In this document: positions 57,588 to 58,015 of the stretch, piece by piece
Layout: every line of letters begins with the position of its first letter
Numbering within the stretch: the first letter of the stretch is position 1
Translations under genes and position numbers: made by a program
Source: Escherichia coli
GTDB taxonomy: Bacteria > Pseudomonadota > Gammaproteobacteria > Enterobacterales > Enterobacteriaceae
Strand: one strand, 5' to 3'
NCBI RefSeq assembly: GCF_003334405.1
Contig: NZ_QOWM01000008.1
DNA length: 64,000 nt
The notes under the pieces: generated by a model
The model's database searches: none
Seen by the model: only the letters and a program-made list of their open reading frames with translations
Told to the model about the DNA's origin: nothing

Positions 57588-58015
57588 TGTATTATGCATC
57601 CTCAACGCAGCCACAGTTAACCTGATTGGCGGGTTTATTTCATCTGTAAATATTTTTATAAAAATAATGCCCACGCACAGCATAAAACAAAAAGTATTAC
57701 AGATAAAAAAGGAACGTAATGTGCAGATTTGTTGTTTTCCATATTTACTCACCTTAATATGATTAATCCTGATAGGGTTGTTATTTCAGCGGTTTTCAAA
57801 TGAGATATTATGGTGATCTGACAAATTTGCATAACATTAAAATTTAATTTGTTTAACCGCTTTTAATAATAAGCGTTGTTTGTATCCCAGCAATCTGTTG
57901 TTTGGTTTTTATTCCATTAAGGTGGGGGCTTTACACTGGAACCAGTTTATTTATACTTTATACGTCAGCCTGAACAACTGGCATCTGCTGCACTGCGCCA
58001 TCGAGAGATTGAGAA

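Follow-up and report, generated by a model that had tools for sequence, protein, structure and literature searches.

The window analyzed here is a 64,000-nt stretch of Escherichia coli DNA (contig NZ_QOWM01000008.1), and this study concerns its 463-bp gap at positions 57553–58015, which lies between the hok coding sequence and ninB. An earlier reading made from the letters alone (below, the sequence-only reading) flagged positions 57588–58015 as AT-rich non-coding DNA with no credible open reading frame (ORF). The comparison of homologous loci showed that the minus strand of the gap contains at 57656–57742 a conserved 28-codon ORF with a coding signature, which contradicts the non-coding description. 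The start and stop codons of this ORF were unchanged in 153 of 154 homologous loci, which held 21 distinct nucleotide versions of it, and in the single exception the ORF was apparently truncated where the contig ends. The earlier reading overlooked the two main contents of the gap, this conserved small ORF and the 3′ untranslated region (3′ UTR) of hok mRNA.

The surrounding DNA forms the right half of a lambdoid prophage of E. coli that is similar to Rac. The flagged part of the gap shares 100% identity with strain ET201, in which the same order of genes continues into trkG. On the left, the gap adjoins the hok/sok locus (57227–57640, with the hok coding sequence at 57397–57552), in which the sok model of Rfam matched 57227–57402 with a score of 105 bits. 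On the right, there are three genes named DUF1367, DUF1364, and DUF1133 in RefSeq, which PHROGs groups with NinB/Orf recombination mediators, HNH endonucleases, and Q-like antiterminators. The placement of the stretch between hok and nin-region genes was thus correct. Its AT-richness was also confirmed, as the G+C content is 34.6% in 57588–58015 and 28.6% in the core at 57641–57920, versus 48.6% in the whole window, and only 2.4% of all 428-bp segments are equally AT-rich. No annotated feature was found under the gap in any match listed from 1,368 RefSeq E. coli genomes and four phage records.

Both A/T strings quoted by the sequence-only reading were found, ttttataaaaataatg at 57654 and aaaatttaatttgtttaacc at 57840. 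The first of them, read on the opposite strand, is the stop and the C-terminal codons of the 28-codon ORF, and the second falls within that non-coding block of the gap which is conserved best. Of the flagged interval, the initial ~50 bp (57588–57640) belong to the 3′ UTR and terminator of hok mRNA. The features of the gap are as follows.

57553–57640, plus strand: hok mRNA 3′ UTR with a weakened terminator (homology downstream of K-12 hokD, terminator scan)
57651–57876: AT-rich cassette of 226 bp, consisting of the minus-strand ORF, its leader, and the invariant block
57742 to 57656, minus strand: 28-codon ORF with stop, encoding MENNKSAHYVPFLSVILFVLCCAWALFL (ORF list, conservation)
57748–57755, minus strand: Shine-Dalgarno sequence AAGGTGAG (read from the sequence)
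57736–57763, plus strand: promoter-like site TTTCCA-16-TATGAT (scan prediction)
57758–57828, minus strand: fast-evolving stretch, presumed 5′ leader of the peptide mRNA (variability)
57829–57876, either strand: nearly invariant 47-bp block GCATAACATTAAAATTTAATTTGTTTAACCGCTTTTAATAATAAGCG (lowest variability)
57930–57957, plus strand: sigma-70-like site TTTACA-16-TATACT (scan, 10/12)
57966–58015, plus strand: first nin-like gene, 5′ leader with ribosome-binding site (the ATG follows at 58016)

The 28-codon ORF and its peptide

The homologous loci, 165 in total, were gathered from IMG/VR and RefSeq. Copies of the gap fall by their sequence into class A (identity of at least 95%), class B (~91%), and class C (~74%–76%), and there is in addition a variant D, which was found on one contig (L075). 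The 28-codon ORF was the sole ORF on either strand that was common to all seven lineage representatives, and stops were present in all five other frames. The variable alignment columns were distributed among the first, second, and third codon positions as 7, 9, and 17. In the three deepest comparisons the ratios of synonymous to non-synonymous codon changes in the ORF frame were 7:5, 8:4, and 6:7, while the other two sense frames gave 0–1 synonymous versus 10–13 non-synonymous changes.

In a permutation test the same substitutions were moved to random positions of matching base, and the trials were scored for an intact ORF with as few amino acid changes. Between class A and variant D there are 16 substitutions, 10 of them in third positions, which result in five amino acid changes, and between C2 and D there are 15 substitutions with four amino acid changes; each gave P ~1e-4. 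In the comparison of A versus C, 0.3%–0.4% of the trials did as well as the observed pattern. The core of the Shine-Dalgarno sequence, AAGGTG, ends 7 nt before the ATG and is present in classes A and C; variant D has AAGGTA instead, and class B the weaker AAAGTG. We take the pattern of substitutions in the ORF as good evidence of selection on a protein. In strain F2_81 (L007, 1748–2961) an IS3-family insertion element with duplicated target lies between the ribosome-binding site and the start of the ORF, at about 57749–57755 of the window. This insertion would fit selection against expression of the ORF, although it is an anecdote from one strain. In a second copy (L132) an insertion element cuts the sequence further to the right, near window position 57890.

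Other ORFs of the gap were considered and rejected. The 72-amino acid ORF with GTG start at 57534–57752 (minus strand), the 31-amino acid ORF at 57667–57762 (plus strand), and the 77-amino acid ORF with TTG start at 57880–58113 are not conserved: in other lineages they are interrupted by stops or begin at different codons, or they extend into non-homologous flanks. The possibility that the 28-codon ORF is a leader peptide or attenuator was also rejected, because there is no downstream gene on its strand and the Rfam match to a Phe leader had an E-value of 2.6.

The consensus of the encoded peptide is MENN[KN][SFY]AH[YL][AV]PFLS[VI]ILF[VAT][LFCGS]C[CF][AVI]WA[LV]FL. It consists of a polar N-terminus of nine residues followed by a 19-residue hydrophobic stretch, which reaches the C-terminus and has a mean hydropathy of +2.6 (residues 10–28). 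The product is probably a single-pass membrane peptide, which would be inserted into the inner membrane. No relevant family match to the peptide was found in NCBIfam at E-values up to 10, and the search against PHROGs gave for one variant only a weak match to a spanin-like signal peptide (E 0.009). A lipoprotein signal peptide was rejected as an explanation, because a lipobox-like FAGC is present in one variant only, while others have LCC, CCF, or FCC at this place, and the spanin match is weak.

Eight variants of the peptide were absent from ~15 billion predicted proteins in an exact look-up, a full-text literature search for the peptide sequence found none, and no description of the gap region was found in publications about type I toxins and hok loci. 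With its stop codon the ORF is 87 nt long, which is below the 90-nt minimum of Prodigal. That the ORF has been overlooked can be explained by this length floor and by its lack in K-12 and in the O157-type prophages that were retrieved.

The invariant block, promoter-like sites, and flanking pieces

The variability was computed over 81 distinct sequences and was complemented by a scan of identity between classes A and C. The data showed that the two classes are 75%–82% identical in the ORF, 45% in 57758–57828, almost invariant in 57829–57876, and 50% identical in 57878–57912. The stretch 57758–57828 has the highest density of variable sites in the gap and is near saturation, while the block at 57829–57876 has the lowest variability and is more conserved than the ORF. 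Hence, the ORF and the 47-bp block are islands of constraint within saturated divergence, an observation which contradicts the alternative offered by the sequence-only reading, that the region is spacer left by recombination.

A smaller conserved island of 8 nt, ATRYTATG at 57805–57812, is present inside the variable leader, and its inverted partner CATAACAT is located at 57830–57837. These two arms are paired in 92% of cells, and no compensatory change was seen. The block itself is an imperfect inverted repeat, GCATAACATTAAAA/TTTTAATAATAAGC, and ends in a 5-bp hairpin with an 8-nt loop, CGCTT-N8-AAGCG, at 57858–57875. The second pair of this hairpin occurs as G-C, G-U, or A-U and the third as C-G, U-G, or U-A, so that 99% of cells are paired, although only if the plus strand is considered. 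In classes A and B the hairpin is followed on its 3′ side by a T-rich run, which was flagged by a scan as terminator-like. The leader of the hok/sok locus holds a sequence, GCTTAACATTAA, which resembles the start of the block, GCATAACATTAA (57312–57323 versus 57829–57840), and which is also complementary to the end of the block, TTAATAATAAGCGT (57310–57323 versus 57863–57876); these matches are short and AT-rich, and may have arisen by chance.

Candidate RNA interactions were also examined. Conserved RNA structure on either strand was rejected as an explanation, because the consensus folds were weak and the features of the minus-strand fold were not conserved. A divergent small RNA acting in trans by pairing with mRNA was rejected as well, because the pairing energies were no better than those of shuffled sequences in five lineages. 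In Rfam, searched with E-values up to 10, nothing was found in the gap beyond chance matches to eukaryotic families. The suggestion that the stretch could hold an undescribed small RNA is possible, as a promoter-like site on the strand opposite to the ORF and a short hairpin are present. The Rfam search was empty, the folds were weak, and the covariation was not significant, so that the RNA layer of the cassette is hypothetical.

The plus-strand site at 57736–57763 overlaps the start codon and the ribosome-binding site of the ORF. Its counterparts are TTTCCA-16-CATAAT in class B and TTTCCA-16-AATAAT in variant D, while in class C the spacing is 15 and the site was not flagged by the scan. If this predicted site were active, its RNA would be antisense to the leader of the ORF. 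A second plus-strand site kept across lineages is TATGGT or TATGAT ending at 57813, to which classes B, C, and D add the TG of an extended –10, and RNA starting from it would be essentially the invariant block. The extent of the block could fit the footprint of a promoter from UP element to –10, as the conservation falls just downstream. Hairpins are present 3′ of the ORF stop in most contexts, and good T-tails on the ORF strand were seen only in the iteS-type flank, which is one of the left-hand contexts described below.

To the left of the cassette, the sequence 57553–57640 aligns with the DNA downstream of K-12 hokD as far as its terminator. The terminator scan identified at 57619–57635 a terminator-like hairpin, AACCTGATTGGCGGGTT followed by TATTTCATCT, with six pairs, one of which is G-U. 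In K-12 hokD and in class B the terminator is canonical, AACCCGCTTCGGCGGGTTT, with the hairpin AACCCGCTTCGGCGGGTT of seven pairs (in class B, L002 3067–3084). The mRNAs of the hok family, as known from the R1 system, contain a fold-back-inhibition element that pairs their 3′ region with the 5′ end. The predicted pairing of 57586–57613 with the 5′ end of hok mRNA at 57227–57250 has an energy of –21.5 kcal/mol, which was equaled by 4.6% of shuffled sequences, and matches what is expected for such an element. The segment 57553–57640 would thus consist, as in other hok/sok loci, of a 3′ element pairing with the 5′ end followed by a terminator. Because the terminator is weaker in the lineage of the window than in class B and K-12, lineages may differ in how far hok transcription, which converges with the small ORF, reads through into the cassette.

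On the other side of the cassette, TTTACA-16-TATACT at 57930–57957 is the best sigma-70-like site of the region, matching 10 of 12 positions, and is located 59 bp upstream of the first nin-like ATG. Its hexamers are identical in classes B and C, and it also had the top score in the cross-lineage scan, which makes it a candidate promoter of the operon of NinB-like, HNH, and Q-like genes with a predicted start near 57964. The proposal of the sequence-only reading that the stretch holds the promoter of the rightward nin/Q operon is in this respect compatible with the sequence, as the site is present in three classes, but its conservation says little. The identity of A versus C jumps to 98%–100% from ~57953 into the downstream genes, so that only the –35 hexamer is in diverged sequence, while the conservation of the –10 hexamer TATACT is uninformative, because it lies in this zone for reasons of mosaicism. 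In lambdoid regulation, a promoter active in the lysogen before Q would be hazardous, and for this reason the operon-proximal promoter, if real, is probably weak or repressed.

The predicted start at ~57964 almost coincides with the start of homology to O157-type prophages (57967), which is located directly after the terminator there. The junction of 25 nt, CCTGAACAACTGGCAYCTGCTGC (57969–57991; L002 ~3417–3439; L005 ~3003–3025), begins right after the O157-type terminator and precedes two unrelated first genes, which are either the NinB-like DUF1367 gene or a gene for a 92-amino acid hypothetical protein followed by DUF968. This sequence may mark a junction of modules, act as a shared leader, or do both.

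The idea of curved DNA or an H-NS silencing site did not find specific support, although generic binding of H-NS to AT-rich DNA may occur. The A/T tracts are 2.8-fold denser in the gap than in the window, but they are not phased at 10–11 bp (P 0.22–0.89), and an H-NS high-affinity motif is not enriched, with one match with two mismatches in the gap versus 1.8 per kb in the window.

Distribution and mobility of the cassette

The gap was found nearly at full length in ~1,165–1,188 of 5,426 complete E. coli genomes (~21%). E. coli W (ATCC 9637)/KO11FL carries an ORF identical to that of the window (L184, 2609–2695). In class B it is located between hokD and a gene for a 92-amino acid hypothetical protein, which is followed by DUF968 and Q, and the homology ends at ~57991. 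In class C it follows a DUF1971 gene, and in another lineage it is located directly after the anti-phage gene iteS. The O157-type prophages (L005) match only the last 49 bp, and the retrieved copies do not contain the cassette. The cassette is also absent from K-12, in which Rac is deleted between ydaW and rzpR, while in Qin, of which 10 kb were examined, the match is limited to the hok 3′ UTR and rem takes the place of the cassette.

When the contig of variant D was set aside, the right side of the cassette was joined to the operon-proximal sequence in 149 of 151 copies, while the left neighbor of these 151 copies was of hok type in 107, of DUF1971 type in 27, and of iteS type in 17. Variant D is located ~1.2 kb from a gene for a 992-amino acid tail-fiber-like protein, on a 6.6-kb contig from the end of a prophage. 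It retains the ORF, with five amino acid and many synonymous changes, as well as the ribosome-binding site, the island, and the block, and its homology extends precisely as far as the outermost base of the hairpin. Because the homology ends at the block edge in an unrelated context, these data suggest that the 226-bp unit could be self-contained.

The search for further relatives gave only E. coli copies. A 19-base pattern from the block was found among 100,044 species representatives only in E. coli, the other 16 matches being in unrelated AT-rich genomes, and tblastn searches against phages and plasmids also returned only E. coli copies. A pattern specific for variant D retrieved only its own contig.

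The genes to the left of the cassette, or of hok where it is present, form a variable cargo. They include AbiH with a hypothetical gene (L002), KilA-N with DUF1971 (L003), IteA/IteS (L004), genes for an ATP-binding protein, an O-methyltransferase, and a cytosine methyltransferase (L005), and a pair of AAA ATPases (L184). The cassette and the operon leader are the constant right border of this cargo and defense hotspot, which lies between the replication genes and the Q operon. In the window itself, two overlapping leftward genes with 30%–35% G+C are present at 55488–56971 (minus strand), between the replication genes and hok. They encode a 184-amino acid protein with several hydrophobic stretches and a 310-amino acid protein, which match end to end phrog_15250 and phrog_15676, both without assigned function, and neither of them had a match in PADLOC. 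As this pair fills the slot taken in related prophages by AbiH, IteAS, or the ATPase/methyltransferase genes, it could be considered a candidate for an undescribed defense pair.

Interpretation of the gap

We consider it quite likely that the ORF represents a true gene and that the hok 3′ UTR, a moron-like cassette, and an operon leader together make up the gap. The fuller account, in which these are three functional pieces side by side rather than spacer, is also probable, if somewhat less so. The first ~85 bp would serve as the 3′ UTR and terminator of hok mRNA. The next ~226 bp would contain a leftward gene with a strong ribosome-binding site, an unconstrained leader of ~75 nt, and a 47-bp control block upstream of it, while in the last ~95 bp the sigma-70-like site would be followed by the leader of the operon of NinB-like, HNH, and Q-like genes. 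The block could be the promoter or operator of the peptide gene, the source of a short plus-strand regulatory RNA, or both.

Several observations do not fit this account easily. The diversity is shallow, as it comprises four lineages which are all from E. coli-type prophages, the second codon positions change between A and C about as often as the third ones, and the autonomy of the 226-bp unit depends on a single 6.6-kb contig. A simple scan found no promoter for the minus-strand ORF above threshold in any lineage, and the cross-lineage position-weight scan gave only weak minus-strand candidates within the block, such as TTAAAC-17-TGtTATGCA ending at 57828. The covariation in the hairpin was not significant, being equaled in 69 of 500 shuffles, and the hairpin of variant D is not followed by a T-run that could give a U-tail. 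The z-scores of single-sequence folds were weak (–1.4 for the plus strand and –2.6 for the minus-strand mRNA), as were the consensus folds on either strand (–5.7 kcal/mol for the plus-strand RNA), and the duplex energies of a short plus-strand RNA with the mRNA were no better than those of shuffles in five lineages. Sequestration of the Shine-Dalgarno sequence by an anti-Shine-Dalgarno sequence, which is present in the minimum-free-energy fold of the window sequence, was rejected, because it is not conserved in the leaders inspected from other classes.

Alternatively, the gap could be a purely non-coding AT-rich region upstream of the nin/Q operon, perhaps silenced by H-NS, in which the ORF is open by chance and has stayed so only because other constraints preserve the DNA. 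The best promoter-like site does face the operon, the cassette is linked to the operon-proximal block at nearly all loci (149/151), the DNA is AT-rich with dense A/T tracts, and no convincing promoter of the ORF was found. On the other hand, a chance ORF would not be expected to avoid amino acid changes relative to position-randomized substitutions (P ~1e-4 in two comparisons), to vary most in third positions while it alone among the frames is stop-free, and to keep a ribosome-binding site at fixed spacing. As variant D has the ORF and the block without the operon, and as neither A-tract phasing nor enrichment of the H-NS motif was found, we regard this explanation as improbable.

To a similar degree we doubt that the main product is a plus-strand RNA, either a small RNA of ~65–115 nt ending at the hairpin at 57858–57875, or a leader or attenuator of the nin/Q operon, with the invariant block as the working part of this RNA and the peptide being secondary or irrelevant. 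This possibility would account for the fact that different lineages preserve two plus-strand sites, one (TTTCCA-15/16-NATAAT) with its end at 57762 and the other (TATGGT/TATGAT) at 57813, for the T-rich run in classes A and B, for the changes of hairpin pairs that fit plus-strand RNA only, and for the conservation of the block above that of the ORF. It is at odds with the empty Rfam search (E up to 10), with the low plus-strand z-score, the small energy of the consensus fold, and the non-significant covariation given above, and with the weakness as a terminator of a stem of 5 bp and a loop of 8 nt, which in variant D are not even followed by a U-tail; moreover, it leaves the coding signature of the ORF unexplained.

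That the gap is only a recombination linker between exchangeable phage modules, with its conservation reflecting recent spread and homologous exchange, is very unlikely: there are mosaic junctions at ~57650, 57925–57950, 57967, and 57991, the 25-nt junction is shared before unrelated gene sets, and many copies are more than 95% identical, but lineages which are 25% diverged overall and only 45%–50% identical in parts retain the ORF, the ribosome-binding site, and the block, the substitutions in the ORF are codon-aware, and a linker role is compatible with the presence of a gene.

Regarding what the peptide gene could do, the mechanism that we prefer, although only tentatively, is a type-I-toxin-like module, in which RNA from the site at 57736–57763, as an antisense partner of the leader, would limit translation of the peptide mRNA. 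This mechanism is the most attractive because of the size and hydrophobicity of the peptide, the compact locus, the proximity of hok/sok and of changing defense cargo (AbiH, IteAS, ATPase–methyltransferase, AAA ATPase), and the opposite-strand site over the start of the ORF. That the product is a small membrane protein lacking toxicity is no less probable than a toxin-like peptide. A more far-reaching version, which we regard as speculative and rather unlikely, is that the cassette is the founding member of an unrecognized family of type I toxin–antitoxin or abortive-infection systems in E. coli prophages, in which a 28-residue membrane toxin would be controlled by an antisense RNA on its leader, with overlapping face-to-face promoters in the block, and would be coupled to transcription of the Q operon.

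Among known systems, chromosomal type I modules with very short hydrophobic toxins are among the closest to the cassette. The short type I toxins of the ibs/sib, shoB/ohsC, zorO/orzO, tisB/istR-1, and dinQ/agrB loci are likewise peptides of 19–35 residues with mostly one hydrophobic helix, and type I modules are likewise compact self-contained loci with conserved non-coding DNA upstream. As in type I systems, the ORF appears to be a real gene for a small (<60 amino acids) hydrophobic peptide with one predicted helix. The antitoxins IstR-1, OhsC, and OrzO are antisense to the leader of the toxin mRNA and not to its coding part (PMC2887945, PMC3919570), and the predicted opposite-strand site of the cassette is placed for a leader antisense RNA of this kind. 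The cassette also adjoins another type I system, hok/sok, as well as defense genes.

On the other hand, no similarity to type I toxins (Hok, Ibs, Ldr, TisB, ShoB, DinQ, ZorO) or antitoxins (Sok, Sib, Rdl, IstR, OhsC, OrzO) was found using NCBIfam and Rfam, and in contrast to type I toxins the 28-residue peptide does not have a C-terminal polar or charged tail. While the first ~85 bp of the gap belong to hok/sok, the peptide itself is not Hok-like, as Hok has ~50 residues with a periplasmic domain. The cassette adjoins a hok locus in the majority of copies (107 of 152) and also occurs without an adjacent hok.

Another group of elements to be compared with the cassette are morons, which in the definition given by Hendrix and colleagues for HK97 and HK022 are additional autonomous genes inserted among the conserved genes of a phage. 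Like morons, the cassette has a lower G+C content than its neighbors (28.6% in the core of the gap versus 48.6% in the window), is oriented opposite to the early-right operon, and is present or absent among related prophages, being missing from the examined parts of Qin and Rac as well as from prophages of O157 type in which the flanking genes are the same. It was also seen once at another classic moron site, beside tail-fiber genes. It differs from typical morons in that it is much smaller and its own promoter and terminator are only weakly predicted. The small prophage proteins of K-12 detected by ribosome profiling (YnfU and YnfS in Qin, YnaM in Rac) are likewise products of very short genes in cryptic lambdoid prophages that standard gene callers miss, but no homology to them was found as far as tested, and the cassette, which is absent from K-12, was outside those surveys.

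The cassette would encode a small hydrophobic prophage peptide, as a moron which is common in E. coli and unannotated, and it leaves the existing concepts unchanged. E. coli is the organism searched most for small proteins and type I toxins, although mainly in K-12 and O157, both of which do not have the cassette, and a gene missing from all annotations would be present in about every fifth complete genome of E. coli. The location of the ORF at the edge of a hotspot with hok, AbiH, and IteAS, directly upstream of Q, makes roles in phage defense, prophage maintenance, or the timing of lysis plausible. In more general terms, AT-rich “intergenic” DNA of prophages can conceal genes below the length cut-offs of gene callers, and even if the peptide were inert, the gap would be explained as a hok 3′ UTR, a moron, and an operon leader, and not as junk spacer.

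Matches to known RNA families were also observed beyond the gap, downstream of the Q-like gene. Just downstream of it, at 59467–59606, there were sub-threshold Rfam matches to isrK on both strands (21.6 and 20.1 bits with a gathering threshold of 50, E 0.2–0.5), together with a weak match to the Thr leader. These are probably due to chance. In Salmonella, isrK is located at a comparable place in a Gifsy prophage. About 750 bp downstream of the Q-like gene, at 60191–60377 on the plus strand, there is a full-length match to the small RNA family STnc100 (83.4 bits with a gathering threshold of 47, E 2e-17), which is not annotated in the RefSeq record of ET201 and may be part of the leader of the late operon.

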